Below, piece after piece: positions 20,315-61,428 of a DNA stretch of 64,000 nucleotides; position 1 is the stretch's first letter, and each line of letters begins with the position of its first letter. The stretch lies in the UHGV virus genome UHGV-1364187; one strand, given 5' to 3'. The position numbers and the translations under genes were made by a program. The notes under the pieces are model-generated. The model worked only from the letters and a program-made list of their open reading frames with translations, was not told the DNA's origin and did no database searches. Origin of the DNA: a virus.

Positions 20315-23300
20315 CTATCTTTTAAATAATCTCTTAGTGAGATCTATAGCAGTATTTAATGTATTTCTAGATATAGTAAGATTATCAGGATTATATGGAG
20401 TATCTCTTATATATTCACTAAAGTTAAATGTATTATCTCTAGTCCCCACATACTTCATATATTTATTGAAATCATTTAATATTCTAGCTCTAATATCTAC
20501 AAATTCTTTACGTTCCTGCTTTGTCATTTTATTTATTTTCTCTTCTATTCTAGTATTAATAAACCATAACTTACATAGTTCATATTTCATTCCATCTATA
20601 TTGCCTACTTTCTCATATGACATTAGTAATTTATGTGATTTATTAAACTCTTGTTGAAAATCTATCTTCTTATTAAGAATTAAATCACCTTTATCGTTAA
20701 TAGATATCTTTGATTCAGCTTCTAACAATGAAGATTCTTTCCTTTTACTTTTAATAACTTCAACTAATCTATCCGATGCAATTTTTCTATTATGAGAATT
20801 GAATTCTAATAAAGGATTCCATCCTAAAGCTTTAATAATATTCTCATCTTTTTCAACCTTAAGTCTATTTGACCAAGCTGTTTCATAATGTTCATTATAA
20901 GCAACTTCACCATTACATCTTTTAGTATAATAATCAAACCATTCTTTTATGGTTACATTATCATTTAATATATCTTCATCATCCATTACTGTTATAGTAT
21001 CAGCAATTTCATCTGGATGATAAAATCCATCCTGTGATGTTTCCCAAGGAATCTCTGTTTCTTCTAGAATAATATTTTGTTTATAATCAAATTCCACATT
21101 ATCTAAATAATCTCTCATTTTATTATTCTTTCCTATTTTGATTTTTACTCCATGTCTCATTGAAGCTACACATATAGCATTACATAATTTATTCATATAC
21201 TTTTTATCACATTTATTGAACCATCTTACTGCTTGTATAACATGTTCTTTATCAATAAGAGGATATTTTCTTTCTTCTGGAATTCCAAAGTCGTCATCTT
21301 TAAGAGCATTTCTTTCTTTAGTTGAAAGATCAGCTTCTGTTAAATAATCACATACATTTATTCCAGTAATATCATCTGTTTTAGATAAGTCTTCACATTC
21401 ATCATCAGAATGTAAATAATTTGATAATAGATGAGATGATTCGTTGTGTATATATGCATGTATACTAATATCTTTATTATACTGTAACTCTCCATCTAAT
21501 GTAATATAATCTGTAAGTTTGCTTCCATATGTAGGAATATTATACATTCCTAATTCAATAATTCTCTTTTTGATATTATCAGCTAATTCTTGTTTATATT
21601 CATCTTTACAGTGATTAAAACAATTAGCGATAATTTGTATTACATCATTTGGTGTTTGTAGTGGATATTTTCTTTGTTCTGGTAGACCATATACTTCTAT
21701 AACTCTATCAAAGTTCTTATATAATTCTCCACATTTATAACAAATTCCAGTATTATTCCAATCATCTTCTGTATATATAAGTGCATCACATTTATTACAT
21801 TTATAATGACTACCAATTGACATTTCTTCTGTTATTGCACATTCTTCATTTATAGAAGATTTCATCTTATTTTTTACTATATTAGCAATAATGTTCATAT
21901 CTTTAATCATATCATCTACTTTAAATCCACTTGGTTTAAATCCTATGTCATTTTTCTCTGATAAATTTATAATATATTTACTAGCCCATTCTAGTCCATC
22001 TTTAGTATGTTTTCTATGAAGCTCTTTTTCAAATACTTCTATAGATTGAAGACATTTTTCCCAATCGGATTTCTTATTACTCTTTAATGCTTTTCTAATA
22101 GCTGAATTTGGATCTGGTAAATTTGGACTAAAGAATTCTCTTACTTCCATAATATTAGCTTCATTTAATACAGTTCCATCTTTATTGATTTTCTTAATCC
22201 ATTTCCAATTCCATCTATATAATTCAGCTTCATATTCATTATCAGGACCATATTTATATTTCATACCCTCTTCGTGAGCATCTTCAACCTTAATATCTCC
22301 TATATATTTTAATTTTACACTATTAGTTATCCATACTTCATTAGTAATATTACAATCTGGTACTTGATAAACTGATGGTTTTACTTGTTTTATATTATCC
22401 ATAACTATTTCGTGTACACATAATGTCTTACCTTTAAGATTCATACTCATTGCTGTTAAACATCCGTTTATACTTGTAGAACAGCATACTCTACATGTAG
22501 TATTATCTTCGTATCCATTTTTAGTAAGAAAATTATCTGGTACTATTGGATTTAATATAACTCCATCCATATTTGTTGAAGATACAAAGAATAGTTTTTT
22601 ATAGTCACATTTTGTTTGTCTATGTTCTTTTGGTACTCTATGATCTTCTACCCATTCTTCCGCATATACTTGTCGTTGTATTGTATTTAATTCAATATAA
22701 GACTCCATAATATTTCTTTTAAGTTTTCTTATATTACTTTTTACTTTAGATTCTTTATAATCATTTATCTTCCCTTCATATACTTTATATACAACATTAG
22801 AAGTTGCAAATTCTTGTGGTCTTACTAATGCTGAATCTTTTTGATTTACATTTACCCCACCAAGCTTTAACATAGAATCAACAAATTGAGAACAAAACAT
22901 TTTATCATCTCTATTGATTGGTTTATTTAATAATACTCCGAATAATCCAAGAATACTATATGAATATTCTTTAATATGATCTATAAAGTATTGGATCTGT
23001 TGTTTTATTTTTTCTATGTTTATCTTTGGTATTAATACACAGAATACTCCAATATTAATATTACCAAATTTCTTTTTAAACATATCGAAAGACTCTTTAA
23101 CAAATCCATCGAAATTAAAACTAAATATATTATTCATCTTTGCATCAAATGATAATGATACATGTGTGTAATCATCTCCAGTAAAAGCTCTAATAGTTTT
23201 AGACATTATAGAACCAGTAGTAGTCAATAATATATATACTGGTGATAATTCATCATTATTATTAGATTCATTAATAGTAACTTCTTGTGTTAAATCTAGA

Positions 23301-23323
23301 AATCCTACATTATCTAATATCAT
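20315..23323 (-). CDS. Large hypothetical protein of 1002 aa. N-terminal LRAT/NlpC-P60-like permuted papain-fold domain, with two copies of a ~45-aa 'PE(E/Q)RKYPL...VIQ..FN.C' module.
   Basis: YTHVSLSFD (His) followed ~60 aa later by MFCSQFVDSML (the Cys nucleophile, like NCEHFV in LRAT-family proteins). Internal duplication YGLPEQRKYPLQTPNDVIQIIANCFNHC and FGIPEERKYPLIDKEHVIQAVRWFNKC. Confidence 0.4.
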   Translation of the reverse strand: MILDNVGFLDLTQEVTINESNNNDELSPVYILLTTTGSIMSKTIRAFTGDDYTHVSLSFDAKMNNIFSFNFDGFVKESFDMFKKKFGNINIGVFCVLIPKINIEKIKQQIQYFIDHIKEYSYSILGLFGVLLNKPINRDDKMFCSQFVDSMLKLGGVNVNQKDSALVRPQEFATSNVVYKVYEGKINDYKESKVKSNIRKLKRNIMESYIELNTIQRQVYAEEWVEDHRVPKEHRQTKCDYKKLFFVSSTNMDGVILNPIVPDNFLTKNGYEDNTTCRVCCSTSINGCLTAMSMNLKGKTLCVHEIVMDNIKQVKPSVYQVPDCNITNEVWITNSVKLKYIGDIKVEDAHEEGMKYKYGPDNEYEAELYRWNWKWIKKINKDGTVLNEANIMEVREFFSPNLPDPNSAIRKALKSNKKSDWEKCLQSIEVFEKELHRKHTKDGLEWASKYIINLSEKNDIGFKPSGFKVDDMIKDMNIIANIVKNKMKSSINEECAITEEMSIGSHYKCNKCDALIYTEDDWNNTGICYKCGELYKNFDRVIEVYGLPEQRKYPLQTPNDVIQIIANCFNHCKDEYKQELADNIKKRIIELGMYNIPTYGSKLTDYITLDGELQYNKDISIHAYIHNESSHLLSNYLHSDDECEDLSKTDDITGINVCDYLTEADLSTKERNALKDDDFGIPEERKYPLIDKEHVIQAVRWFNKCDKKYMNKLCNAICVASMRHGVKIKIGKNNKMRDYLDNVEFDYKQNIILEETEIPWETSQDGFYHPDEIADTITVMDDEDILNDNVTIKEWFDYYTKRCNGEVAYNEHYETAWSNRLKVEKDENIIKALGWNPLLEFNSHNRKIASDRLVEVIKSKRKESSLLEAESKISINDKGDLILNKKIDFQQEFNKSHKLLMSYEKVGNIDGMKYELCKLWFINTRIEEKINKMTKQERKEFVDIRARILNDFNKYMKYVGTRDNTFNFSEYIRDTPYNPDNLTISRNTLNTAIDLTKRLFKR

Positions 23324-26468: not shown

Positions 26469-27179
26469 TTAATTTGTAGTAGTTGTAGTATTAGTTATAT
26501 TATCACTATATGTCCATTCTCCGATTTTGATTATGTTTTTAGGACTTAGGTCATCTTTAATTTCTTTTAATGTTTCTGGAGTTACAGCTTCATAAACACT
26601 CATATCTTTAGAGTTTGATTTCATTTCAACTATCATTCTATCTAATGTGAGATCACAATATTCATCTACCCAATCTACAATGAAATAGAATCTATTATTA
26701 ATAACTCTATTCTTTTTATCTAAGAAAATACCAATTACAATCGGATCTTTTTCTCTTCTTTGTTTCTCAACTTTCTTTTCATCCTTTCCAGTATAATCTG
26801 TATATATTACATACAATTCATCAAAGATATCTTTTGCAATTGCTATTTTTTCTACAACATCATCTGGAATGTCTCTTTCAAATCTTTCTAACTCAATAAC
26901 TTTTACTACTCTATCTCCGACAATATCAATATATTCAGATACATCTTCTCTTTGAATATATTTAGTAAATCCATTTGCAATTGCTTTTCTTTCTTTTTCT
27001 ACACAATCAATATAGAAAATAAGACGCTTTAATGCTTCTTTTTGTCCTGTAATCTTATACTTTTTTACTAATGATAGACATTGATTATAGAAAGCGTCCA
27101 ATTTTTCATCATCAATATTTTCTTTCTTTGCTTTAAGTGTTACAAAATATTCTGTTGCTGTAATTTTATTCTCTTCCAT
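26469..27179 (-). CDS. Hypothetical protein of 236 aa.
   Basis: ORF with SD. Confidence 0.7.
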   Translation of the reverse strand: MEENKITATEYFVTLKAKKENIDDEKLDAFYNQCLSLVKKYKITGQKEALKRLIFYIDCVEKERKAIANGFTKYIQREDVSEYIDIVGDRVVKVIELERFERDIPDDVVEKIAIAKDIFDELYVIYTDYTGKDEKKVEKQRREKDPIVIGIFLDKKNRVINNRFYFIVDWVDEYCDLTLDRMIVEMKSNSKDMSVYEAVTPETLKEIKDDLSPKNIIKIGEWTYSDNITNTTTTTN

Positions 27180-28583: not shown

Positions 28584-29996
28584 TTAAAACGATGTGCTCA
28601 TTAAATCTAATAAGAATGGTTGTATTTCGTTTATAGATTTAACAGGTATAGATTTATTTCCAGTAATAGTATTTTCTATATAATATCCATTTACTTCTTC
28701 CATAATTCTTAAATCAATATATCCTTCTAATAAAGAATTGCATTGTTCTCTTATATCTTTGTCTAGTATTGGAAATCCAGTATGAATTATATCTTTATCT
28801 AATTTTTGTTTATAACTATAGAGAACATTCTCTTCTATAATATCCTTTAACAAAGTACCACTATCAGATTCATATATAACTTTAGAATCAGGAAAGTTCT
28901 TTATTAAATCTTTCATATCGAAAGTATCAAAATATTCATGAGATTCACAAATATGTTCTAATCTATCTATAATATTTGTATTTTCTACTTTAATATCTGA
29001 TATTGTATATACTTTACCTTTTAAGAAATCTTTAGCTTTTACTTTCTTTAATTCATCACTATCACATATAAAAATATTATCTGATAATCTGTTTGTCATA
29101 ATACCATGACCATCATTTATATATCCAGTGTCACTATAAGATACTGCATAAATATGATCAGATGGATCCATTGGATGACCTCCACATGAACATCCAGCAT
29201 ACTCGTGTATATGAACTTTCTTTTTATCTTTAGGTGTTTCTAAAGAGAATTTTATATCTAAGAATAACTCTAACAGTTGACCGAACTGGTTATCTGTTAA
29301 TCTTAGATAATTAAATTTACCTTGTTTTTCAATAGCTTTTTCTTTAGCTATTTGTTTAGCTCTGTATTCTGGCATTTCTCTATTGTTTTTATTATTTCCA
29401 CCATCTTTAAGATCAATCATAGCATCGAATGGTTTGATATAATAATCTGGTATCCAAAAATGTCTCTCTCCTTTATATGTATATGGAATAATCAACTCTT
29501 TATCTTTTCCATCTATAGTAAATATATCTATATTGGCTCTAAGATGTAATACTTGGTCACAGAACTCTAGAAAATTTTTCTCATAAGAACCTACATATGT
29601 AAGTGTTTGACCATCACTAAAAGTGTATGTTCCTGAGATAGATCTATTATTTAACATCTTTGCTTGATGTTCTGGGTCATTTAATAATGTTTTTACACCA
29701 TATTTCTTTACATGATTTTTTAATGCTTTTTCTCTAGCTATCTTTTTACATTCTTCATTAGGATGTATATCATCATATCTCCACTTATCTTCATTCCATT
29801 CTGTAGGTTTACCACAACTTCTACATATACCTCCAGATACATTATTTAGATAATCAAATACAACCCTAGCTGCAGTATATCCTTCTGGAATCATTTCTTC
29901 ATGTTCTTCTGATACATGTGAAACTAAATCTCCTCTTATTGCAGTGAAGTCACAATATGGACATTTATATTTACGAGTACTTTTATATACTTTCAT
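28584..29996 (-). CDS. Hypothetical protein of 470 aa with an N-terminal zinc-finger-like CPYC...H motif.
   Basis: Long ORF. Confidence 0.7.
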   Translation of the reverse strand: MKVYKSTRKYKCPYCDFTAIRGDLVSHVSEEHEEMIPEGYTAARVVFDYLNNVSGGICRSCGKPTEWNEDKWRYDDIHPNEECKKIAREKALKNHVKKYGVKTLLNDPEHQAKMLNNRSISGTYTFSDGQTLTYVGSYEKNFLEFCDQVLHLRANIDIFTIDGKDKELIIPYTYKGERHFWIPDYYIKPFDAMIDLKDGGNNKNNREMPEYRAKQIAKEKAIEKQGKFNYLRLTDNQFGQLLELFLDIKFSLETPKDKKKVHIHEYAGCSCGGHPMDPSDHIYAVSYSDTGYINDGHGIMTNRLSDNIFICDSDELKKVKAKDFLKGKVYTISDIKVENTNIIDRLEHICESHEYFDTFDMKDLIKNFPDSKVIYESDSGTLLKDIIEENVLYSYKQKLDKDIIHTGFPILDKDIREQCNSLLEGYIDLRIMEEVNGYYIENTITGNKSIPVKSINEIQPFLLDLMSTSF

Positions 29997-40043: not shown

Positions 40044-41066
40044 TTATAGTTGTATAAAAGTGTCAATAATTCTATCTGGGCTTACGCCATAATCTTTTTC
40101 TCCGATACAATTATTAGTGTGCAGATATGTTGGAATTCCAAAAACCTGCAATACTTGTGATAGTTGTATAAATTGTGCGATATCTACTTCACTATCACGA
40201 TATATGTGAACTTCACAATAGAACATATTAAGTTTAATTAATTGGTCTATTAGTGAAAGATAATTTTTATTCTGTAATGCATAGTATATACCTGGTTCTC
40301 TATTACGAAGATTTAAATATACCGATAATATATCAAAAGGACCTTCTGCCAAGCACACTAGCGTTCTTTTAGATGTATTTAAATATACCTGAGTAGGTAT
40401 AATATAATATGAATCATCCATATCATCATTGAATATTTTGTAGTTTACATATCTCTTATCTACATATTTAGAGACTTTCCCTTCTCTAAGATTTCTCATA
40501 TTTATAGCACCATTATGTCCAGCTATAAAACCAATAAATGAAGAGTTTAACTCATCCATTACCATTGGATATCTAGTATATTCTTTTATGTTATTATAAT
40601 TCAATAGATCATATAGATTTAAAACTATTTTAAGATTTATAATATCATTATAAGTAAGTTGAGTTCCTAAGCGTTTATTTATAAAAGCAAGTTTAAGTTC
40701 ACTCATCTTACTATCTGATATATACCCGTTCTGAATTGTATATATTCTTTGATTATTCTTATTTACTCTTGGTTTATATTTTGATTCTTTATACCCTTTG
40801 TTTAATTCTAATGCTAATTCAGAATCAAATATACCAATTGAATTTAAAAATTGAGTTGTGACTATTCCGCTATTAGGACATCTTTTACAATGGTACATCG
40901 GAATACCATTATTCATTCCTATATATAAATGTGTTGAATGATCGTCACAATTATTACATCTCATACATACTTCATTACCACCAGAACATGGTCTGGCTGA
41001 AGAAATATTTTCTAATAGCAAGCTTTTAAGATGTTCCCATATGTCTATATCTGCCATATTATTCAC
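40044..41066 (-). CDS. DNA primase-like protein with an N-terminal zinc ribbon and a TOPRIM-like motif.
   Basis: CMRCNNCDDHSTHLY...YHCKRCPNSG (C-x2-C...H-C-x2-C). LVCLAEGPFDILSV resembles the TOPRIM E-G-x-x-D motif. Confidence 0.45.
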   Translation of the reverse strand: MNNMADIDIWEHLKSLLLENISSARPCSGGNEVCMRCNNCDDHSTHLYIGMNNGIPMYHCKRCPNSGIVTTQFLNSIGIFDSELALELNKGYKESKYKPRVNKNNQRIYTIQNGYISDSKMSELKLAFINKRLGTQLTYNDIINLKIVLNLYDLLNYNNIKEYTRYPMVMDELNSSFIGFIAGHNGAINMRNLREGKVSKYVDKRYVNYKIFNDDMDDSYYIIPTQVYLNTSKRTLVCLAEGPFDILSVYLNLRNREPGIYYALQNKNYLSLIDQLIKLNMFYCEVHIYRDSEVDIAQFIQLSQVLQVFGIPTYLHTNNCIGEKDYGVSPDRIIDTFIQL

Positions 41067-42390: not shown

Positions 42391-44016
42391 CTATATTAGT
42401 AATAAATATATTAATACTTCTTCCATAATAATAGAAGGTATGTTTTCTACAATAGTCCCATTGAGTTCTGGATCATCATAATCTACAATCTTAAAAGTAC
42501 TTACTGATAAAGTTGCAATGAAAGATAGAATATCTTCTACAAATCTATCATGTTCTTTTCTAGATTGAGAATATCTCATTTTCATCTCTTTCTCTATATT
42601 AGGGTCATAATACATATTGCTATCAACTCCAACAATATCATTCATTGAGAATACGTTAGATAGACCTACATATTTCTCTATTACATATTTAAAGTAGATT
42701 GAGTTAGATAGTTCTGTATATTCTTTTTTATTGATATTCTTCTTCCTAATAAGCTTAACAACATTACCACTTATTATATATGGTAATATTCTTAAGTTAT
42801 GGCCTTCTAATAATCTCTTAGCAGCTATTACTAGTTTGATATATTCTTCTATATTATCAAGAGATTTGATACTCATTGGATCTCCAAAATACTTCATGAA
42901 TAGATTGAATACTAATTCTTTTTGAAATTTATTGATCTTTCCTCCGAACTCTTTATAATAGAAATTTATTTCGTCTTGTTCAAAAGGACCATATAACATT
43001 TCTATTTGCTTCATTGTATATGAGCAGTTTACATCATTTTGCAATAACAATGATTCATCATTACGAATTAATAAACTCTCATATTTATCAAACTCACTAT
43101 TATTATCTTCATCTCTGTTAGATAATGATAAAGGAATGAAACTGTATTCCCATGTAATACCAGTAATTTGAAATCCATTGTTGTTATTGATAGAACCAAA
43201 GTTCAAACTAACAATGTTCTTATTATATACATACTTAGGTAATACATTTAAGAGAATATTATCTATACATGATAATGCATGTGTAGTAACGTTTTTACTT
43301 CTGATATCTTGTTGATCCCACAATCCAGTATCACGCTTATATGAAGTATTAACATTTGTAATTGCTGTTTCATATAACTTATTGTATAGATCAACATCAC
43401 TGTACAATTCGATATTCAATAATATATCACATATTGTAAGAATAAAGTTATTGTCATCTTCTGAAGATCTCATATACATAAAATGACATGCTAATGGAAT
43501 GATCATATTCATTAACATACTAATTCTCATTAACAGTTTAGCATGTCTATTAGTATAACAAATAGCTGAATTGTTATTCTTATATACTAAGTCTATTATA
43601 TAATTATCATCGTTCATATTCTTAACTTTCCATAGAATAGTAGGAGATAATATATATCTTTGTATATCAGCTAAAAAATTGTCTTTGGTATAAGAAGCTT
43701 CATAATCGATAAGATATTTTATTTTAGAATAAATCATAAATAACTCTTTATCTTGATCATAGAACTTCTCGAAATAGTTTAAATAATGACACATATGCTC
43801 TTTCATCTCTTGAGTTGCATAGCATCGTTTGGACGTTAGAATAAAATAATCTATAGATCGTTTATCTTCATCATCTAATCCATAGAAATCGAAAATAGGA
43901 GCAACAAATGCTCCTTTACAATGTGTGAATAACATATCATCCTCATTAGGAATCCAATCATCCACTTTAGGATTGTTATAAGATCTCTCTTCTGATATTG
44001 TTGCTGGTACTATCAT
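42391..44016 (-). CDS. Hypothetical protein of 541 aa with an MIVPATISEE N-terminus.
   Basis: ORF with SD AAGGAGGTTTTATAAAATG. Confidence 0.75.
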   Translation of the reverse strand: MIVPATISEERSYNNPKVDDWIPNEDDMLFTHCKGAFVAPIFDFYGLDDEDKRSIDYFILTSKRCYATQEMKEHMCHYLNYFEKFYDQDKELFMIYSKIKYLIDYEASYTKDNFLADIQRYILSPTILWKVKNMNDDNYIIDLVYKNNNSAICYTNRHAKLLMRISMLMNMIIPLACHFMYMRSSEDDNNFILTICDILLNIELYSDVDLYNKLYETAITNVNTSYKRDTGLWDQQDIRSKNVTTHALSCIDNILLNVLPKYVYNKNIVSLNFGSINNNNGFQITGITWEYSFIPLSLSNRDEDNNSEFDKYESLLIRNDESLLLQNDVNCSYTMKQIEMLYGPFEQDEINFYYKEFGGKINKFQKELVFNLFMKYFGDPMSIKSLDNIEEYIKLVIAAKRLLEGHNLRILPYIISGNVVKLIRKKNINKKEYTELSNSIYFKYVIEKYVGLSNVFSMNDIVGVDSNMYYDPNIEKEMKMRYSQSRKEHDRFVEDILSFIATLSVSTFKIVDYDDPELNGTIVENIPSIIMEEVLIYLLLI

Positions 44017-44067
44017 TTTATAAAACCTCCTTGTAGTATTATTTACTTCATATATATAATATATGAT

Positions 44068-44826
44068 TTATTTCTTTTTTACTACCGTACTTGTTCGAGA
44101 TTTATTAGTAGTTTTTGTTTTAGTAACAGATTTAACTGGTTGTTTTACATTACTCTGTTTATCAATAACATTGTCTTTAACTGGACGTTTTTCAACTTTA
44201 TTTCTTTTAGCTCTCTTTTCAGCTTCTATTCTTTTTCCTTGTTCTTGTCTAGCCAAGATTTTAGTATCTGCGTCTTCTATAGATGCAACAAATAATTTCT
44301 TATTGAATGGTTTAACATAAATTTCAAATACATTCTTTTGGAATAAACCTTTTGAATTCATAATAAGATATAAAAAGAATAATGATTTTACATATCCTAC
44401 ATTACTTCCAGCATTTCTTTCTTTAGCTACAGTATTTAAGAATGTCTTAGGCATCTTTGGTTTAAGCATATCTATAAACATATTATGTTTCTTAAATGCA
44501 TGAGCAAAAGTGAAACAGAATGATGGATCATTAGAATAAAATCTTACATCATAATCTCTTAAATCTTTTTTCATTGAAGTAAATGGATTAATTGTACTAA
44601 ATTCCACCACAGTATCATAGTAAAATTTTGGAACAACCTCACTTGGTATTCTAATATGTACAATATAATCATTACCATTCATATATAAATTATAAGTTAT
44701 TTTACCAGCTTCTCTCAACATAATCAGATCTAATTTTTTCTTATACATATCTCTATACATTTGCATATTTGAAAAAACTGAATTCTTTTTTCCCATAGGG
44801 TTTTTGATATAATCATCAAATGTCAT
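44068..44826 (-). CDS. Hypothetical protein of 252 aa with a very basic Lys-rich C-terminal tail.
   Basis: ORF with SD AGGAGGGATATCATATG. Confidence 0.7.
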   Translation of the reverse strand: MTFDDYIKNPMGKKNSVFSNMQMYRDMYKKKLDLIMLREAGKITYNLYMNGNDYIVHIRIPSEVVPKFYYDTVVEFSTINPFTSMKKDLRDYDVRFYSNDPSFCFTFAHAFKKHNMFIDMLKPKMPKTFLNTVAKERNAGSNVGYVKSLFFLYLIMNSKGLFQKNVFEIYVKPFNKKLFVASIEDADTKILARQEQGKRIEAEKRAKRNKVEKRPVKDNVIDKQSNVKQPVKSVTKTKTTNKSRTSTVVKKK

Positions 44827-44919
44827 ATGATATCCCTCCTAAACTTATTAAGTATAAGTTATTTAGATAGTAAAATGTAAAAAATAGATAGTGAAAATTA
44901 ATCCACTATCTATTTTTAT

Positions 44920-46617
44920 TTACATGTATTTATTCTCTGCAGTATTTCTACAGATAAATTGATTTGATGTATAAATCAATGTAAGAATTTTAGCAATAGC
45001 ATCTAATACTGCACAATCTGATTCAATAGATGCAATAATATCTTTATTAAATTCTTTCTTTACGACATCGTATACTACAGTTCCTTTTTGTTCAATGATA
45101 TTATTAATAATCCCATCAGAATCTGTAATATTCGAATTTGAATATAAGATTTTAATAAGATTTCTATATGATCTATTGATAATATTCTTTATAGTATCTT
45201 TATGATAATCATTAGAATAATCAATTACATATGATGCGTATAATCCTTCAACATTAGATGCCATACCATAACCATGTTCATCAGCAGATCTAATATTAAG
45301 AACAGCATCTTCTACTAAATCTCTTACAGAATCTCTATCAGCAGCACTAATACCACCAATATGAAATTCTACTAAATTTCCTTTAAGAGATTGAATTCTA
45401 CGTTTCATCTCACCAATTTCATGAGCATTTGCTCCTTGTTCTTTTCGTTTCTTTAATTCTGTCTCTAAATAGTTTAAGTGAACATTGAATGTTTTTGAAT
45501 AGTCTCCATTTTCATCTCTCATTTCTTTTGGATTGACAAATTTGGATTTATCAGCATCACATTCAAATACTTCACATGTACCGTAGAAATCTTTTGAAAT
45601 ATTATCTAATGTTGGAGCTAATCCCTTTTTAACCATTTCTTCATAGATCTTCTTATCAATAGATTTCTGAATAGGTTTTGCTCCAATCATTTTAATGATA
45701 TCCATATATTGTTCTGTTTGTGTAATATTCGTAACTACACATAATGGAAGTCTACTCTCTGATGATTGTTGAGAGAACATTCCAATGATATTGTCTATGT
45801 AATTACTCATATCCCTAGAAATACTTGGTACCAAGATTACAGTTGGTACAATCATATCTGGTTTATTTTCATTGATAGCTGTAACAATATTATCATAGAT
45901 AATCTTATCAAAGAATTGAGCTTGTTCTAATGTATTGATAGGATCAATAAATGCATAGATTCTTGGTTTAGGAATAATACATTTATTCTTAGATGTATTT
46001 ACAAATGATGGGTCCATATATCCACATTGTAAATTCATACCGTTATATTCTTTTAAAGCTGTTACTCCATTAGAAGATACAGCTACGTCGATGAATACAC
46101 CTGAACCAAATTTAGCATAAATATCTCTTAATGTTTCAGCAATTCTTACGTTTCCATTAGTAGATACCATTGCAATTTTATATACAGCATCTAAATCTAA
46201 TTCTTTAGATCTAGTTTTAATTTGTTTAATAATATCATTAACTACACTTTGGAATTGTCTCATAACTTCAAAAGGTGTTAAATCTTTAGATATAGAGCTT
46301 TTTAACAATTCTTCAAAGATAAGATGTGAAAGTAAAATAGCTGATGTTGTTCCATCTCCAACTTCTTTTACTACAGATCTTGTAATTTCATAGATATCTT
46401 CTTTAGTCGAACTTTCAATATCTCCTATAACTTCAATTTTACTCAAAATAGACTTACCGTCTTTTGTATATCTTGTAAGAGTTTGAGTACCTCCACTGAT
46501 TGTAGTGTTAGATCCATCAGGACCAAAAGATAACTTTAAACAATCTGCTAAGAATTTTAAAGTTTCTAATCTAACCTCTACTAATTTTTTACCTGATACT
46601 ACATTTGATCTAATCAT
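44920..46617 (-). CDS. GroEL/Cpn60-family chaperonin, phage-encoded.
   Basis: The N-terminal region aligns with GroEL: VEVRLETLKFLADCLKLSFGPDGSNTTI, TKDGKSILSKIEV, and the ATP-binding VGDGTTSAILL (GDGTTT in GroEL). 565 aa. Confidence 0.7.
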   Translation of the reverse strand: MIRSNVVSGKKLVEVRLETLKFLADCLKLSFGPDGSNTTISGGTQTLTRYTKDGKSILSKIEVIGDIESSTKEDIYEITRSVVKEVGDGTTSAILLSHLIFEELLKSSISKDLTPFEVMRQFQSVVNDIIKQIKTRSKELDLDAVYKIAMVSTNGNVRIAETLRDIYAKFGSGVFIDVAVSSNGVTALKEYNGMNLQCGYMDPSFVNTSKNKCIIPKPRIYAFIDPINTLEQAQFFDKIIYDNIVTAINENKPDMIVPTVILVPSISRDMSNYIDNIIGMFSQQSSESRLPLCVVTNITQTEQYMDIIKMIGAKPIQKSIDKKIYEEMVKKGLAPTLDNISKDFYGTCEVFECDADKSKFVNPKEMRDENGDYSKTFNVHLNYLETELKKRKEQGANAHEIGEMKRRIQSLKGNLVEFHIGGISAADRDSVRDLVEDAVLNIRSADEHGYGMASNVEGLYASYVIDYSNDYHKDTIKNIINRSYRNLIKILYSNSNITDSDGIINNIIEQKGTVVYDVVKKEFNKDIIASIESDCAVLDAIAKILTLIYTSNQFICRNTAENKYM

Positions 46618-46630
46618 TTTAAATCCTCCT

Positions 46631-47232
46631 TTAAGTAAATAGGTTAATAAGTTTTAAATTAATCTTATCAGCAACAAATAATGCTAATTCTTCTGGAAGA
46701 AGTACTTTGTCACCAATGATATTAAGATTATATCTAACCATTGCCATATAAACAGCATTTCCAATATATCTACGTGGATTAGAATACAATCTAAATGGTG
46801 TATGTACAAAGAAAGTATCAAATTGTTCTTTCTCTACTTCATTATCTAGTATTGTATTATATCCAAATAGCTCTTTAATAATTTGTTCTTCTGTTTGTGT
46901 TTTACAACAAATAGTTAGTTCTATCATACTTTGATGTTGTGCAGCGTTTACAACATTAAAAATATTATCATTCGCTATAAGATTACTTGTAATGATATCA
47001 TTATATTTCACTATTAGATCTTTCTTTCTATTTTCCAATTGTTCATCTGTTTCGTTTGGATAATCTATAGATAGTACATTATATCTAGTTCTATTTTGTA
47101 ATAACTCATATACTTCTTTACATGGTTTTATATCACTAAGATTATTAATATTATGGTTCATATATAATATAGCATAGTCGTAGTTCAATAACATATCAAA
47201 ATCGACTAGTAAAATATCTTTATCGTCCATGT
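46631..47232 (-). CDS. Hypothetical protein of ~200 aa, with the start moved to the SD-supported ATG.
   Basis: SD AAGGAGAGACGTACATG. This resolves the overlap with the 47289 gene. Confidence 0.6.
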
Positions 47233-47288
47233 ACGTCTCTCCTTTCTGATAAAAAATAAAGAGCGATATTAATATCGCTCTTATGTTT

Positions 47289-48071
47289 TTATAATAAACT
47301 TTGTAAATCAGCTTCAACATCATCAGATGATGTATTTTCTGATGAATTGTTTCTTCCTGGATTATCAAAGATACCCCTACCAGAAGAACCATTATGTGGT
47401 TTATTTCCGTATTGTTTCTTTTCAATTCCAAGTTTCTCACAAATAGCTTTACGATCATTATATGCACCATTGTCTGCATATCTGTTTAAATCATTGATGG
47501 AATATGCAATAGCATTAGTAGAAGCTTTAACATATTCTTCTAATGTAATTTTAAACATTTCTAACTCTGCCATACCATAGAATACTTTGTCATATTCTTT
47601 AGTATTTTTATCGAAATTCCTAATGGCATATTTATCACCTACAAACTCATATGCATAAGTATATACAATATCACCATTTTCATCAATCTTTCTTAAAAAC
47701 ATTAATGGTTGAGTAATACCAAATTCTGTACCATTACTAATAGATAATAATGAACCAGAATTATTTACACAACCAACGTTATTATAAGCCATAGGGTCTT
47801 GTAAGAACGTTTCAATTTCTTTGATAAGAATAAGTGCATCCATATGATTAATGTAAATAACACCACTATTATCATAATCATATCTAGCATTATCTGGTGT
47901 AGAATTTTTAAGCATTGGTGAAAATACTAATTTCATCATACCAAATAAATATTTGATTTGATATGTTGAAGGATCTACAGTTGAATTTGGATTGTAGAAC
48001 CTTAATCTTGTAATTGCTTCTCTTGCTTCGATTTTATTATCGTTTTGATTACTTCCATTTCCTAATGCCAT
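47289..48071 (-). CDS. Hypothetical protein of ~260 aa, with the start moved to MALGNGSNQ.
   Basis: SD AAGGAGGAATTATAAAATG upstream of the ATG at 48071. Confidence 0.65.
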   Translation of the reverse strand: MALGNGSNQNDNKIEAREAITRLRFYNPNSTVDPSTYQIKYLFGMMKLVFSPMLKNSTPDNARYDYDNSGVIYINHMDALILIKEIETFLQDPMAYNNVGCVNNSGSLLSISNGTEFGITQPLMFLRKIDENGDIVYTYAYEFVGDKYAIRNFDKNTKEYDKVFYGMAELEMFKITLEEYVKASTNAIAYSINDLNRYADNGAYNDRKAICEKLGIEKKQYGNKPHNGSSGRGIFDNPGRNNSSENTSSDDVEADLQSLL

Positions 48072-48280
48072 TTTATAATTCCTCCTTAAATATCTATAAT
48101 CGATTATTCTGATGTTATCGATTAAGTAGTATTTTAATGTATTCATTATTATGATACATATAACTTGTTTCGTTATAAAAAACTATTGGTGGTACTAACT
48201 GTTCAACTAAATGTCTATGTTCTAATATATGGTATATATTCATGCATTTTAAAAATCATTTTATACCAATTCAATCTATA

Positions 48281-48472
48281 TCACTCCCTTCTTATACGCT
48301 TAATAGGACTCATTAATGTGTATGGTGGCTCATTAACAAACTCCATATTATATAAATTTCCTCTTAATTTAGGGAGATCAAAATTTAATATTGGTGCGTT
48401 TTTAATAGATCGAATCATGATTTTCTTTTCTATTTTTTTAAGTATATTATTTATTCTTTTCATTAACTTCAT
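48281..48472 (-). CDS. Small basic protein of 63 aa.
   Basis: SD GAGGAGAGAAG upstream. Overlaps the end of the 48447..48599 ORF. Confidence 0.4.
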   Translation of the reverse strand: MKLMKRINNILKKIEKKIMIRSIKNAPILNFDLPKLRGNLYNMEFVNEPPYTLMSPIKRIRRE

Positions 48473-48599
48473 TATTACTTCTCTCCTCTATTATAATTTT
48501 GCCTTGAATTGGATAATACTTACCTTTAATTGTGTATCTTTCAGATGCACTGATTGCTGGTAGTTTTATTTCTTCTTTCTGTTTTTCTTTATTACTCAT
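48447..48599 (-). CDS. Small protein of 50 aa (MSNKEKQKEEIKLPAISASERY...).
   Basis: SD AAAGGAGGAATTATATATG. Contains a KLPAISASE motif. Confidence 0.4.
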   Translation of the reverse strand: MSNKEKQKEEIKLPAISASERYTIKGKYYPIQGKIIIEERSNNEVNEKNK

Positions 48600-48695
48600 A
48601 TATAATTCCTCCTTTTCACATTTATAATATATGATTGTAATTATTATTAATAAGTAGATATAGAAGTAGAATTAAATTCTACTTCTATATCGTTT

Positions 48696-49853
48696 TTAAT
48701 ATCTTCTTTGTGTAGTTGGTAGCACTGTCCATAACCCCAGATACTTAGGTTTGTAAGAATCTGATTTAGCTAATGAATCTCTAAGTTCTTCTAATTTAGA
48801 TAATAACATACCCCATCTTTTTATTTCTGATTCTGATAATCCTTTTTCTAATGATAAATAATCAGATACAATATTAATCTTAGAATTAATATCTCTCATG
48901 ATATCCATAGCTTCTATTTCGTTATCAACATTTTTGATCTTGATTTGATATACATAAGTATCGTCTTCTATAGCTTTTAATCCAGATCTTTTCAATCCTC
49001 TAAATACTGATTCTACAATATAATTTAAAGCACTTTCTCTTATATAAGTCTCATTAATTGGTTGTTTAAATGATTTAATAAGACTATCTTTAAGTTCTTT
49101 GTTATCTTGTTTTTCTAATTTGGAACCAGAATATTGATTAATATCATCCATACATCTTGTGATAAACTTTCTTCTTTCGAAGATTTGTTTATATACTGTT
49201 AATGTCCAGAATAATGTATTTAATTTTCCTTGTGGTCTAAACGTACCTCTAGCTTTAAGAATTTTAGTGAATGCTGATTCTAAATCTGGACCATAGCCCA
49301 TCTCTATAGAGAATCTATCAGCTTCAAATTCTTCTTGATCTTTCTGGAATATGGATTGTATTGATTCTATAGTATGTCTAAGTGCATAATCAAATAACTT
49401 GACACATTTATGAACATCTAATGTAGTTGTATTAGTTCTATTTTTAGTTTGATATTCTATAATAGAATCTTTTATAATTTCACTATTAGCTTTATCATTT
49501 TGTGCAATATGTCCAACTTCATGCATAAGAATAGTAGTTAATTCTCTTGCAGTAAATCCGTTCAATTCATCAAATAATTTAGAATCAAATTCTATTACAT
49601 AATTATTTTGTGTATTATTGTTCTCTTTTAATGTAAACGTATTAGCTACAGTAGTAGGAGTTAAGTTCAAGTATACTTTCATACCAAAGAATGCTTTATC
49701 TGTATTAAGAGTATATATAACATCTTTACATATATTATTACCATGATAGAACTTATTGAGTTCTTGTTTAATTAATCCCAATTCGTAAGAACCAGGTTTA
49801 CCTTTAGACAGAATATCAGCAAATATTCTATCAAATATAGTTAAATCATACAT
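48696..49853 (-). CDS. HExxH zinc-metallopeptidase-like protein of 385 aa.
   Basis: TTILMHEVGHIAQND (HE-V-GH, the same pattern as the ImmA/IrrE M78-type HExGH motif). Confidence 0.45.
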   Translation of the reverse strand: MYDLTIFDRIFADILSKGKPGSYELGLIKQELNKFYHGNNICKDVIYTLNTDKAFFGMKVYLNLTPTTVANTFTLKENNNTQNNYVIEFDSKLFDELNGFTARELTTILMHEVGHIAQNDKANSEIIKDSIIEYQTKNRTNTTTLDVHKCVKLFDYALRHTIESIQSIFQKDQEEFEADRFSIEMGYGPDLESAFTKILKARGTFRPQGKLNTLFWTLTVYKQIFERRKFITRCMDDINQYSGSKLEKQDNKELKDSLIKSFKQPINETYIRESALNYIVESVFRGLKRSGLKAIEDDTYVYQIKIKNVDNEIEAMDIMRDINSKINIVSDYLSLEKGLSESEIKRWGMLLSKLEELRDSLAKSDSYKPKYLGLWTVLPTTQRRY

Positions 49854-49951: not shown

Positions 49952-51682
49952 TTAGAATCCTTTACTATTAAGGATTGTAACACGTCCTTGTACTGGTTGA
50001 TATTCATAGAATTTCCAACGATCAAATGCATGAATTGCTGGTAATGTTGGGTTAGCAGCATTTCTAATATCATTTGCAATGTAAAGTTGGTAATCGTATA
50101 CCATGTACATAATTCTGTTTGTTCCTCTTGGTTTAAGAAGGATAATAAGGTCATCTGGATTATTTCCATTTCCTGACCAATGACCTGTATTAAGGTTTTT
50201 ACGAATTTTATCTGTAGAGATGAATTCATATCTACGGTTATCTGTTGTAACAACAGTTTTCTTGAAGTCTAATGCAACTCCACCTTGAGTAGTATTAGAA
50301 CCTGTTGTATATGTGATTGGCATTGTTTTACGAATTAAATCAGTTCTACCAATTACAGTGATATCCACGTTTGGATCGTTCCAAACCTGGATCATGTCTG
50401 TTGCTAATGTATCTAACTGATCCATGAATAAGTCATGTCTCCATTGAACTGGAGAACTAGATAAGTATCCACCTTTTAATGCAAAATCAATAGAATCACT
50501 GAATTTTTGTGATTTATGTAATGTTGCATATGATTTATCAAGTTCTTGTTTGATAGAGTCATCTTTCCAGTTACCCATTACGTCTTTAATCATAGACATA
50601 AGTTTAGTAAGTTGGTTTACTCCATAAAGAGCTTGAACGTCTTTGATTTCTTCTGGAGATACAGGAATGTTAATAGGAATTGATGTACCAATTTCTACTA
50701 AGCTTTCTTCTGTTTTCCATTTTACACTACATGTATTTACTAAGCCATTAGAAGTATCTTTTCTAGCTGTAAGTCTAATAGCTTTAATATTTCCTCCAGT
50801 ACAATGAGCAACTAATTGGTCATTGTATAACATAGCTGATAAGTAATCTCCTACTGGTTCAGCATCTGGATGTTGATCTGCACAAACGTCGTTTGTGATT
50901 TTGATTGTTTCATTAACATAACGTTTTTCACCATCACCATAACCTGGTGTAAAGCCATAATTTACATCAATCCAAACATCTGCAGTAACAGCTGGAGTTA
51001 GAATACTACCCATAGTGTCATATACAGGTGGTGTTGTAATAACAGTTGCTAAGATACCAGAAATATATGATTCAACAGCGATATGATCTTGAGCACCAGC
51101 ACCAATAGCATCAATAAGATTTGTTGTTGCTTGTTCTGGTAAAGTCATTTCGATAGTTTTGAATGGAACTGTTGAATCGAAAGCATCTTTGATAGCACTT
51201 TGTTCATAGAATAAATCAATTTCTTTTCCATCTGGTGTTGTCATGAAACGTTTTTCCATAGTGATAGTAAATTTAGGAGTATTAGCTACACCACGAGAAA
51301 TACCACCATTATCAAATACGTTGTTCATCATGAAATATTTATGCATTGGAAAAGCCATACCAATAACAGGGTTGAAAGTTGCTAAGTTACCAGCAGCTTC
51401 AAGTACACCTTGACGGTCGTTTTCAAATAATTGATTCATGTCTTCTTCATGTTCATTCATAGCAACAGGATCTAATTCTTCTGTTGTAGAATCTTCAACG
51501 AAGAATTCACGTAGAGCACTATAAGCATCTTCCCTTTGACAAATTTTTGCACTTTCTGAAAAGAAATCAACTTGTGATTCATTCATGATATCACCGATTA
51601 CACGTGCAAATTTTTGTGCATATGGTTGTAATGCTGTTGAAGAAAAACTAAATTTGTTATCTTTATTTTTACCAAAGATCAT
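49952..51682 (-). CDS. Putative major capsid protein of 576 aa.
   Basis: Lies immediately downstream of an acidic, coiled-coil scaffold-like gene and near the gp21-like protease. Noticeably higher GC and less extreme codon usage than its neighbours. Candidate propeptide cleavage site GVLE/AAGNLATF at about residue 96. Confidence 0.5.
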   Translation of the reverse strand: MIFGKNKDNKFSFSSTALQPYAQKFARVIGDIMNESQVDFFSESAKICQREDAYSALREFFVEDSTTEELDPVAMNEHEEDMNQLFENDRQGVLEAAGNLATFNPVIGMAFPMHKYFMMNNVFDNGGISRGVANTPKFTITMEKRFMTTPDGKEIDLFYEQSAIKDAFDSTVPFKTIEMTLPEQATTNLIDAIGAGAQDHIAVESYISGILATVITTPPVYDTMGSILTPAVTADVWIDVNYGFTPGYGDGEKRYVNETIKITNDVCADQHPDAEPVGDYLSAMLYNDQLVAHCTGGNIKAIRLTARKDTSNGLVNTCSVKWKTEESLVEIGTSIPINIPVSPEEIKDVQALYGVNQLTKLMSMIKDVMGNWKDDSIKQELDKSYATLHKSQKFSDSIDFALKGGYLSSSPVQWRHDLFMDQLDTLATDMIQVWNDPNVDITVIGRTDLIRKTMPITYTTGSNTTQGGVALDFKKTVVTTDNRRYEFISTDKIRKNLNTGHWSGNGNNPDDLIILLKPRGTNRIMYMVYDYQLYIANDIRNAANPTLPAIHAFDRWKFYEYQPVQGRVTILNSKGF

Positions 51683-54427: not shown

Positions 54428-55231
54428 ATGGTAAACAATATAGGATATATGATCTGTGAAGTAGCATCTTCAGAAGCTAGAAAACCTGTTATCGTTGATA
54501 GGGTAAACGATCGTGTAGTAATAGAAGCTATTTTACAAGATCTTAATATTAAAAATAGAAATGGCAGATATTATTCAACAGAAGAACTAATACCTCAATT
54601 AACATGTGAAAGAACAATGGAACTTCTTAATGCAAATGGTATTCCTGGTGAAGCTGGTCATCCATTAGCAAAAGATTTAGTACGTCAACAATCTATAGAC
54701 CCAATGAGGGTAAGCCATTATATAACAAAATTATGGCATGATAGAAATGATATTAAAGGTCATGTTAGAGCAGCCAGAGGTCAAGCTGGTGATTTATTTA
54801 ATGATACAGTTCTTGATGGCATTAAAATGGCATTCTCATTAAGAGCACTAGGTACAGTTGTTAATACAAAAAATGGTGCAGAAGTTAAAAATATTAAAGT
54901 AATTACATGGGACTGGGTGTATTATCCATCGCACAAACGTGCATATCAAACTGGTATTGTTACTGAATCATCTATAATGAATGATGAACAAAATGGTGTT
55001 ACTGGATTATTTACACCATTTAATACAAAACAGGTAATAAACTTTATTAAAGAATCATCATGTAATTTCAAAACTATAACAGAATCTTTTGAATTTTTAT
55101 ATAAAGATATTACCATGATAGATCCTAAACATGTACAACTTGTAGCTGATAGTGGTGAAGTTGTAGTTTGTAAACTAGAAGATCATGTAAGTAATGAAAT
55201 TATGTCATATTGTAGAGGATTTAAATACTAA
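54428..55231 (+). CDS. Prohead core protease, T4 gp21-like.
   Basis: IPGEAGHP matches ILGELNHP of T4 gp21, FSLRALGTV matches VSLRGYG, and ...NRNGRYYSTEEL matches ...NRRRYPADVW. 267 aa. Confidence 0.55.
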   Translation: MVNNIGYMICEVASSEARKPVIVDRVNDRVVIEAILQDLNIKNRNGRYYSTEELIPQLTCERTMELLNANGIPGEAGHPLAKDLVRQQSIDPMRVSHYITKLWHDRNDIKGHVRAARGQAGDLFNDTVLDGIKMAFSLRALGTVVNTKNGAEVKNIKVITWDWVYYPSHKRAYQTGIVTESSIMNDEQNGVTGLFTPFNTKQVINFIKESSCNFKTITESFEFLYKDITMIDPKHVQLVADSGEVVVCKLEDHVSNEIMSYCRGFKY

Positions 55232-59859: not shown

Positions 59860-61428
59860 TCATAGTTTCTTTATTATAAATGCTGGTACTATATAAGCAG
59901 GTTTAATCATACATCCATTATATATTCCACTATTATCTATAAATGCTGGTATTTGTAAATTCTTTTTAGGAGTAAGTTCTTTAGATTTTGTTACTAATGT
60001 AAAATCATCTAAAGTTATTACATTATAGCTCTTAGCATATGTTTTAAATATATCTTTTTTACTATTAAAGAAATCTCTACATGATTTAAATCCTATATCT
60101 ACTATATCTATATATTTTGTATTATTGCCTCTTGTTCTACCTAAAGTTTGTCTCGCTAATACTTCTGATCTAAAAGGTTCGGCTAACATAATTGTCATTT
60201 GTAATCCTCGTATATCAGTTGCAGCTCCACAACTTTTAGTAGTACTAAGAATAATATCACATTGTAATTGGTCTTCTTTATTACCTTGAACTTTGGAATG
60301 ATATTTTCCAACACTCAGATTAGGATATTCATTTAATATCCAATTATATACATAGTCTATAGCATCTATAGTGGCTAAATATATAAGTGTCTTTCCATGT
60401 TTCATGGCTATATTAATTACTATTCTGAGCATATGAATGAAATTCTGTTGTTTACATACATAATTGGCATAATTTACAGAACTAAATCCTTTTCTAGTTC
60501 TGCAATTTTGTATATCTCTTGCTGTAGGTCTAGAATTATATTTAATTGCTATATAATCGGTATGTGGATCATTATCTCCATCAAACAAATCTATAGATGG
60601 GACATTTTTAAAGTAATAATTATATATTACATTCTCATCTCTACTACTTCTTGCTGGAGTAGCTGTAATATAGAATGTCTTATAAGTATTTGTATAGAAA
60701 TCTATTTTACAAATATTATCGAAGTTTAAATGTGCTTCATCATAAAATTTAAGTCCTATCTTCATAAATTTAAACAATTCTGTTATCTTATCCCATCCAT
60801 TCTTTTCACCATACGATCTTAATGTTGCATGTGTAGCCAATATATATTTATATTGAGATATATCTTTTTGTAATAACCTTACTATGGAACCAGAACCCTC
60901 TATAATATATATTTCATCAGATGATGTATTTGTATATTCCATTATACAATTTTTCCACTGTTCTATCCATCCACTAGAATTCATTATAAATATACTTCTC
61001 ATCTTATATAAAGTGGTAACAGCTATAGAGCAATATGTTTTACCTTTACCAGTATTAAGATTTAATGCAAGTTGAGAATACTTCTTTGTGAAATCATATT
61101 CCTTTACACCATACATAAATGCTATAGCTCTTTTTTGTATATCATCTCTTGGCATATATTTCATTTTAGATGGTTCTATATGATCATATTTATCTACATT
61201 TCTATCTATAGATGCATATGATTGAAACATATTTTCTAACATTGGAACATCTATTCCTCTTGGTAATATAAGCTGTTGAGTATCTTCTTTGTATTCCATT
61301 CCTTTAAAATATGAAGAGAATGTAATGTCATTCCAGAGACTGAACATATACTCAAGTTGTGGCATATCACAAAGTGTATATTTATTTATAACTATACTTG
61401 ATTGTCTTAATTGTATCTTGCTAGACAT
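59860..61428 (-). CDS. SF2 DEAD/DEAH-box helicase (ResIII/UvsW-like).
   Basis: Walker A LNLNTGKGKT, DEAH box FYDEAH, motif III ITATP, motif VI QTLGRTRG. Confidence 0.75.
   Translation of the reverse strand: MSSKIQLRQSSIVINKYTLCDMPQLEYMFSLWNDITFSSYFKGMEYKEDTQQLILPRGIDVPMLENMFQSYASIDRNVDKYDHIEPSKMKYMPRDDIQKRAIAFMYGVKEYDFTKKYSQLALNLNTGKGKTYCSIAVTTLYKMRSIFIMNSSGWIEQWKNCIMEYTNTSSDEIYIIEGSGSIVRLLQKDISQYKYILATHATLRSYGEKNGWDKITELFKFMKIGLKFYDEAHLNFDNICKIDFYTNTYKTFYITATPARSSRDENVIYNYYFKNVPSIDLFDGDNDPHTDYIAIKYNSRPTARDIQNCRTRKGFSSVNYANYVCKQQNFIHMLRIVINIAMKHGKTLIYLATIDAIDYVYNWILNEYPNLSVGKYHSKVQGNKEDQLQCDIILSTTKSCGAATDIRGLQMTIMLAEPFRSEVLARQTLGRTRGNNTKYIDIVDIGFKSCRDFFNSKKDIFKTYAKSYNVITLDDFTLVTKSKELTPKKNLQIPAFIDNSGIYNGCMIKPAYIVPAFIIKKL

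Follow-up and report, generated by a model that had tools for sequence, protein, structure and literature searches.

The question raised by the window, a stretch of 64,000 nucleotides from the virus genome UHGV-1364187, is whether it encodes a chaperonin and, if so, of which type and with which partner such a protein would work. An earlier note made from the sequence had proposed a phage-encoded GroEL-like chaperonin of 565 amino acids (aa) at positions 44920–46617, with a GDGTTS signature, no obvious co-chaperonin nearby, and Pseudomonas phage EL as the best-known example of a rare class. Our analyses confirmed that the gene encodes a GroEL-like phage protein of the Cpn60 family and identified it as a Cpn60 of the AR9 gp228 type, group-I-like but highly diverged, which probably folds phage proteins without a GroES-type partner. 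The open reading frame (ORF) of 565 aa was found exactly at 44920..46617 on the minus strand, from an ATG to a TAA codon. A strong ribosome-binding site, the Shine-Dalgarno sequence AAGGAGG, read directly at 46625..46631 (minus strand), lies 7 nt 5′ of the ATG, where it overlaps the TAA stop of the upstream gene, and supports the start codon. As the window is AT-rich (approximately 26% GC), long ORFs are unlikely to arise in it by chance.

Results of the family searches were consistent with each other. The Pfam model Cpn60_TCP1 (PF00118) scored 57.8 bits against a gathering cut-off of 34.3, with the generic model aligning to residues 23–158 only, and PHROG 5725 (“chaperonin groEL”) matched residues 2–559 with an E-value of 1.1e-56. 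A sequence search of the PDB gave group I chaperonins as top matches (an ancestral AFCB chaperonin, Hsp60, and GroEL, E 6e-23 to 1e-16), together with EL gp146 (6TMT, E 1.4e-16), while group II chaperonins were found at about 1e-6 to 1e-7. With a family profile built from 67 relatives, the group I matches reached E 2.5e-42 to 1e-30 and EL gp146 1.7e-31; OBP gp246 (6HDD) was matched at 1e-17 over the N-terminal 160 residues only, and the group II chaperonins (CCT, thermosome) at 2.8e-12 or worse. Judged by sequence, the protein stands nearer to the group I than to the group II chaperonins. An affinity to group II (thermosome/CCT) was ruled out by these E-values. The best homologues are therefore Cpn60-family members, and the chaperonin assignment of the earlier note stands.

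The alignment of the same 67 relatives was fed to AlphaFold2, which gave a monomer model with a mean predicted local distance difference test (pLDDT) score of 88.7 and a predicted template modelling (pTM) score of 0.72. In Foldseek comparisons the model superposed over 560–572 columns on GroEL/Hsp60/Cpn60 chains with template modelling (TM) scores of 0.80–0.86 for the extended, GroES-bound state, and of about 0.55 for apo-state subunits. This full-length superposition of a confident model proves, for the predicted structure, that the complete equatorial-intermediate-apical subunit architecture is present, including the apical and equatorial domains that had been left to be checked. Such an extended conformation is often obtained in modelling and is no evidence for GroES binding.

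The likeness to GroEL/Hsp60 lies in the three-domain fold, the core ATP-site residues and the best PDB sequence matches, whereas overall identity to E. coli GroEL is only 17.6%. BLASTP aligned the two proteins at 26% identity over the N-terminal 200 aa (E 4e-18) and otherwise only in a short stretch around D398. Recent derivation from a host GroEL was ruled out by the 17.6% identity and by a deep, phage-only clade. The protein is also not a canonical GroEL: we looked for the C-terminal GGM repeat tail, the GGG loop, D495 and a partner Cpn10 gene, and found that the tail and, within the window, the partner gene are missing, while the loop and D495 are altered. Instead of the GGM repeats, the protein ends ...TSNQFICRNTAENKYM.

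The gene comes from an uncultured gut jumbo phage of approximately 256 kb and 26% GC. The identical protein is encoded on six contigs, of which the four retrieved come from separate ENA metagenome assemblies (one record is labeled gut metagenome and one contig, k119_250412 of ERZ27229639, measures 256.5 kb), and it carries the JGI label “chaperonin GroEL (HSP60 family)”. A nucleotide search of positions 43000–49000 against 50,697 phage records gave no match, so the phage is not a known isolate. At the protein level, more than 1000 metagenomic proteins matched at E 1e-5 or better; the best 120 of these share 40–70% identity with the query, are 550–594 aa long, and in many cases are encoded on 200–280-kb contigs.

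Among the phage genomes, tblastn detected a chaperonin homologue in 141 of the 50,697 records. Full-length matches with 24–27% identity were obtained for the Bacillus phages AR9, PBS1, Goe21, and BpSp, Staphylococcus jumbo phages (Madawaska, S6, and others), Listeria phage LPJP1, and Yersinia phage phiR1-37, while EL-like, Vibrio, Cellulophaga, and crAss-like chaperonins matched more weakly and only partially. The closest characterized protein is AR9 gp228, aligned by BLASTP over residues 2–556 (25–27% identity, E 8e-38). Phage EL, named in the earlier note as the comparator, is therefore a relative but not the nearest one, as its gp146 shares 18.5% identity with the query. The rarity claimed there was likewise overstated; phage chaperonins are uncommon but well documented, given the 141 records, the existence of PHROG 5725, the more than 1000 metagenomic proteins, and the report that viral chaperonins are common in marine viromes (PMC5649160). 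Cryo-EM or crystal structures are on record for the EL, OBP, and AR9 chaperonins.

A neighbor-joining tree of 17 sequences (200 bootstraps, read as unrooted splits, with cellular chaperonins minimally sampled) recovered the gut clade as monophyletic in 200/200 replicates, and the split joining this clade with AR9, LPJP1, Madawaska, and phiR1-37 was obtained equally often (200/200). In a structural search of BFVD the top two matches were Hsp60 of Myoviridae sp. ctIty1 (34% identity) and AR9 GroEL. Moreover, an N-terminal (S/T)N(V/I) motif and a C-terminal T(S/C)NQ(F/Y/I) motif are shared by the query, eight other gut-clade members, AR9, Madawaska, LPJP1, and phiR1-37, and both were absent from the E. 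coli, EL-like, VAP7, and crAss-like chaperonins compared. This terminal signature (SNV and TSNQF in short) was derived in the present analysis and is not a published definition.

The proteins of the AR9 type (AR9 gp228 and those of PBS1, vB_BsuM-Goe21, Madawaska-like phages, LPJP1, and phiR1-37, where it is g243) resemble the query in their length of 560–580 aa and in lacking both the GGM tail and an adjacent GroES gene. As in the query, the residue equivalent to GroEL G416 is Asn and D495 is lost, and their phages have jumbo genomes of approximately 250–265 kb, similar to that of the query. In contrast to these proteins, the gut clade has its own apical insertions and an invariant C-terminal N562-x-Y564; the query gene also has a different upstream partner (a 199-aa, HAD-like gene), lies near the major head gene and an M48 peptidase gene, and derives from uncultured phages found in metagenomes, with 26% GC. 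EL gp146 shares with the query its origin in a jumbo phage, the GDGTT motif, D398, an extension of helix H, and the lack of a GGM tail and of an adjacent GroES. Yet, it falls outside the AR9-type clade, retains GGG414–416 and D495, has neither the SNV nor the TSNQF motif, and forms a double ring that dissociates with ATP, as opposed to the single rings of AR9-type proteins. OBP gp246, in turn, is a phage chaperonin reported as a single-ring heptamer working without a co-chaperonin, but its sequence relationship to the query is much weaker, as seen in the profile search.

For the residue-level comparison we aligned the protein with E. coli GroEL (locus L005), AR9 gp228, phiR1-37 g243, an EL-like chaperonin, and 21 relatives, and then checked the positions in the 67 relatives. 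The GDGTTS signature pointed out in the earlier note occupies residues 87–92 (VGDGTTS, 86–92) and aligns with G86-D87-G88-T89-T90-T91 of GroEL. Ten residues were invariant in all 67 relatives, namely G32, P33, K52, D53, G54, G87, D88, T90, T91, and D437, which correspond to GroEL G32, P33, K51, D52, G53, G86, D87, T89, T90, and D398; G89 of the GDGTT motif was kept in 64 of the 67. By sequence, the catalytic nucleotide site is intact. Other parts of the pocket differ from GroEL. At GGG414–416 the phage protein has A-S-N (453–455) and the clade (G/A)-A-N; D495 corresponds to Ala529, with mostly Ser or Thr and also Cys in the clade, and A480 to Val, with Val, Ile, or Leu in the clade. AR9 gp228, which is ATP-dependent by experiment, also has G-G-N at 414–416 and lacks D495, so such changes are no argument for an inactive protein.

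The apical domain was compared at nine classical GroEL positions that contact the substrate and the GroES mobile loop (Y199, S201, Y203, F204, L234, L237, L259, V263, and V264). Five of the nine are hydrophobic in the phage protein (Y200, F205, F236, I277, and I278); hydrophobic character is kept across the clade at the equivalents of Y199, F204, L237, and V263, and less consistently at that of V264. The predicted hydrophobic apical groove is thus partly retained. Between the equivalents of G192 and D398, that is in the apical/intermediate region, the protein has about 38 extra residues in comparison to GroEL. A 13-residue extension of helix H (240–252) is also present in AR9, phiR1-37, and EL, while two apical-domain insertions are conserved in the clade: 332–344, in which G-x-A-P-T (332–336) is nearly invariant, and 362–369, which contains N-P-x-x-M (362–366) with P363 and M366. 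At the C terminus, N552, Q553, N562, and Y564 are invariant in the clade. Positions of inter-ring contact vary within the clade, and for this reason the number of rings cannot be read from them.

The lack of an obvious co-chaperonin gene nearby was borne out for the window by three kinds of search. No Pfam match to Cpn10 was obtained among the 39 small and 37 large ORFs of the 64-kb window (ORFs of at least 60 aa), no PHROG match to the GroES family was found among its small ORFs, and when E. coli GroES was compared by tblastn with all six frames of the window and of five related loci, only noise was returned (E 0.5 or worse). Neither did a Cpn10 gene adjoin the chaperonin in any relative examined. 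GroES homologues were present in 125 records of complete phage genomes, with Bacillus and Staphylococcus not among the frequent organism names; among the 60 of these 125 records that were listed, the only Bacillus phage was 0305phi8-36. These data suggest that AR9-type phages have no detectable GroES.

Taken with the placement of the protein, our results make it likely that it is a co-chaperonin-independent, ATP-driven ring of the AR9 gp228 type that folds phage proteins. By homology with AR9 gp228, EL gp146, and OBP gp246, the subunits would form a ring of seven, most probably as a single ring. The apical groove would then bind non-native phage proteins, and binding and hydrolysis of ATP at the equatorial site would move the apical domains, so that the client is released and refolded, in a cycle running without a GroES-type lid. 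The gene lies in a late block of structural genes, with the major head gene four genes upstream of it, and this position points to late phage proteins (virion proteins or the endolysin) as the likeliest clients, which is speculative. Such a cycle has precedents in characterized phage chaperonins. For AR9 gp228, a heptamer in a single ring, ATP-dependent refolding of denatured endolysin has been shown in the absence of any co-chaperonin (PMC9598537), and OBP gp246 also forms a single ring. The double ring of EL gp146 separates upon ATP binding; this protein lacks a lid of its own and shows no interaction with GroES (PMC7185714). The AR9 and EL structures are open and lidless.

Several observations weigh against this reading. 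Identity to the characterized AR9 protein is only about 25–27%, which makes both the ring number and the independence of a co-chaperonin extrapolations. The AlphaFold2 model describes a monomer, and the ring is a prediction from the relatives. Given the changes in the nucleotide pocket (GGG414–416, D495, and A480), ATPase activity is not guaranteed by the sequence. Four of the nine apical contacts are polar or small (S201 to Asp, Y203 to Ser, L234 to Ala, and L259 to Ser). Finally, the co-chaperonin scan covered 64 kb of the approximately 256-kb genome, and GroES of the host might still be used.

The last points lead to the strongest of the alternatives, according to which the protein would be a GroES-dependent, canonical GroEL-like chaperonin that uses either the GroES of the host or a divergent phage Cpn10 encoded in the approximately 190 kb outside the window. 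Its closeness to group I chaperonins, the five hydrophobic apical contact positions, and the partial coverage of the genome by the search would all fit such dependence, as would the extended GroES-bound-like conformation of the model, were this not a common modelling outcome. In one marine virome, 40% of the GroEL-carrying contigs had a GroES gene as well (PMC5649160). On the other hand, no Cpn10 was found in the window or adjoining the chaperonin in the relatives examined, AR9 gp228 and EL gp146 work without or ignore GroES, no AR9-type phage with a complete genome is evident among the GroES carriers, and small or polar residues stand in place of Y203, L234, and L259. We regard GroES dependence as rather unlikely, albeit the likeliest of the alternatives.

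Much less probable is a chaperonin-derived protein that does not cycle as a foldase and serves as an ATP-independent holdase or as a scaffold for virion or nucleic-acid machinery. Such a role would fit the missing GGM tail, the non-conserved GGG414–416 and D495, and the location of the gene within a block of structural and transcription genes, and the EL chaperonin is indeed known to prevent aggregation even without ATP. Against it, the equivalents of D52, D87, T89, T90, and D398 are invariant in 67 of 67 relatives, a constancy that speaks for selection on ATP hydrolysis, and the ATP-dependent AR9 gp228 shares the pocket changes at 416 and 495.

We also give little credence, to a similar degree, to the idea that features of the gut clade (its insertions, helix H, the N-x-Y motif, and the linked upstream gene) form a partial lid or a docking site for a cofactor other than Cpn10. 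If true, it would mean real encapsulation by a single ring, so far unseen in phage chaperonins, the structures of which are always open. Least probable of all is a self-lidded chaperonin resembling group II, in which the extended helix H (240–252) and the clade-specific insertions 332–344 and 362–369, all apical, would close the cavity in place of GroES, as these insertions fall well short of the roughly 30 residues of the group II helical protrusion, a similar helix H extension occurs in the open, lidless structures of AR9 and EL, and similarity to group II is far weaker (E 1e-12 or worse vs. 1e-42 for group I).

Returning to the gene itself, the chaperonin is preceded by a 199-aa gene (46631..47230, minus strand, start ATG at 47230), with a 13-nt gap between the two according to the gene calls on the matching contig (L001). 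The mechanical ORF list shows overlapping minus-strand ORFs at 46631–47479 (282 aa) and 47289–48146 (285 aa), for which the gene calls of the contig are shorter (199 and 260 aa). Terminator-like hairpins bracket this two-gene unit, whose layout resembles that of groES-groEL. One, at 44880..44917 (minus strand), has a 16-bp stem and a T-rich tail and starts 3 nt past the chaperonin stop; the other, at 47259..47282 (minus strand), lies upstream of the 199-aa gene and sets the 5′ limit of the unit. The 199-aa gene is probably co-transcribed with the chaperonin. In Staphylococcus phage Madawaska a terminator is annotated at the equivalent place 3′ of the chaperonin. Between 41000 and 52000 such hairpins were enriched (11 found vs. 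1.8 expected from shuffles) and sit in intergenic gaps, whereas a scan of the same region for sigma-70-like promoters showed no enrichment (91 sites vs. 91.7 expected). A further hairpin, a perfect palindrome with a 16-bp stem, was seen at 48657–48691.

The 199-aa protein matched no Pfam or PHROG family, and its homologue search returned only five sequences. It has an invariant VDFD motif after the first strand. Its AlphaFold2 model (pLDDT 74.3, moderate) has an alpha/beta fold, for which Foldseek gave only weak matches to HAD-superfamily hydrolases (E 5e-4); in the model it looks like a HAD-like hydrolase type. An unorthodox GroES was considered for this gene and rejected, since the protein is predicted to be alpha/beta and weakly HAD-like and not a Cpn10-like beta-barrel. 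A gene of similar size occupies the same place in two distant relatives (L009 and L010), with likeness at the motif level only, and the 199-aa protein evolves much faster than the chaperonin.

The setting of the gene is clearly that of a phage, as had been proposed, and more precisely that of a tailed jumbo phage, since the window encodes a major head protein (49952–51682, with the chaperonin four genes downstream of it), a prohead protease (54428–55231), several virion structural proteins, an RNA polymerase subunit, a primase (40044–41066), and a helicase (59860–61428). Directly downstream of the chaperonin lies a gene for a 252-aa protein with a Lys-rich C-terminal tail (44068..44826, minus strand, phrog_20045), similar by BLASTP to AR9 g227 (26% identity, E 1e-24) and to phiR1-37 g244 (28%, E 3e-21), the latter annotated as a virion structural protein. 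This gp227-like protein could be a client of the chaperonin or a mere syntenic neighbor. Genes of similar size were also observed directly 3′ of the chaperonin in Madawaska and in the relative locus L010. It is followed by a gene for a 541-aa protein (42391..44016, minus strand, phrog_25005 “RNA polymerase”), a homologue of a non-virion RNA polymerase subunit with 25% identity to AR9 gp226 (BLASTP, E 1e-16). AR9 gp226 is the fifth subunit of the non-virion multisubunit RNA polymerase, and its Madawaska counterpart is annotated as an RNA polymerase specificity subunit.

The order chaperonin, gp227-like, gp226-like is common to the window, AR9, and Madawaska, and phiR1-37 shows at least the g244 neighbor; further downstream, the window, AR9, and L010 each have a primase gene. 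Matching gene sizes and order were also found in a gut relative with 47% identity, represented by more than 30 contigs. The gp226 homologue marks the phage as a distant member of the AR9/Madawaska/phiR1-37 lineage. Phages of this lineage, namely AR9, Madawaska, and phiR1-37, have uracil-containing DNA.

Other features of the window were noted as well. Between the major head gene and the chaperonin unit lies a gene for a 385-aa Peptidase_M48 (HtpX/Ste24-like) protein with an HEVGH motif (48696–49853, minus strand, 28.6 bits vs. a cut-off of 20.3), a second gene of protein-quality-control type less than 2 kb from the chaperonin. The batch Pfam scan further gave a Peptidase_M16 (insulinase) match (E 1e-10) with M16C_assoc in one window ORF of more than 200 aa, and a Peptidase_S80 match beside a prohead-protease match to Peptidase_S77. 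The small ORFs contain a NUDIX hydrolase, Bro-N/anti-repressor-like domains (two members), NUMOD4/HNH homing-endonuclease motifs, and a gp25-like baseplate wedge protein. At 26469–27179 (minus strand) the window has a transposase-like gene (phrog_10081, E 7.5e-69), and at 28584–29996 (minus strand) a gene for a 470-aa endonuclease that carries a zinc finger at its N terminus and resembles AR9 g233 and Madawaska gp173. In Listeria phage LPJP1 (L013) an IS607-family transposase gene is located directly upstream of groL. A 1002-aa protein (20315–23323, minus strand) combines an N-terminal match to PHROG 1128 (annotated as enoyl-CoA hydratase/carnithine racemase-like) with DUF6582; DUF6582 was also seen, together with acetyltransferase domains, in a 2071-aa protein on the contig of a relative (L009, 8934–13734), encoded two genes downstream of the chaperonin on the opposite strand. 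No tRNA gene was detected by ARAGORN in the 64-kb window, so tRNAs gave no clue to the host; kinship with the AR9-type phages and the strong AAGGAGG site point faintly to Bacillota. GC and AT skew are positive at about 4–14 kb, negative at 14–30 kb, positive at 30–38 kb, and negative at 38–64 kb, with flips that track the strand of the gene blocks.

Results of our analyses do not overturn the current understanding of phage chaperonins, and the new elements are modest: an uncultured jumbo-phage clade, found in metagenomes including those of the gut, with its own apical insertions and C-terminal motif. With them the AR9-type chaperonins, known from a few cultured jumbo phages of Bacillus, Staphylococcus, Listeria, and Yersinia, gain a large lineage of uncultured phages, to which at least the 120 listed homologues (40% identity or more) belong. 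For genome annotation, a chaperonin gene followed by gp227-like and gp226-like genes offers a handy marker of this phage lineage. A deep and diverse alignment, which separates invariant features (the catalytic Asp and Thr residues, and SNV and NQF at the termini) from lineage-specific ones such as the apical insertions, could help structure-function work on how an open, lidless single ring folds proteins.

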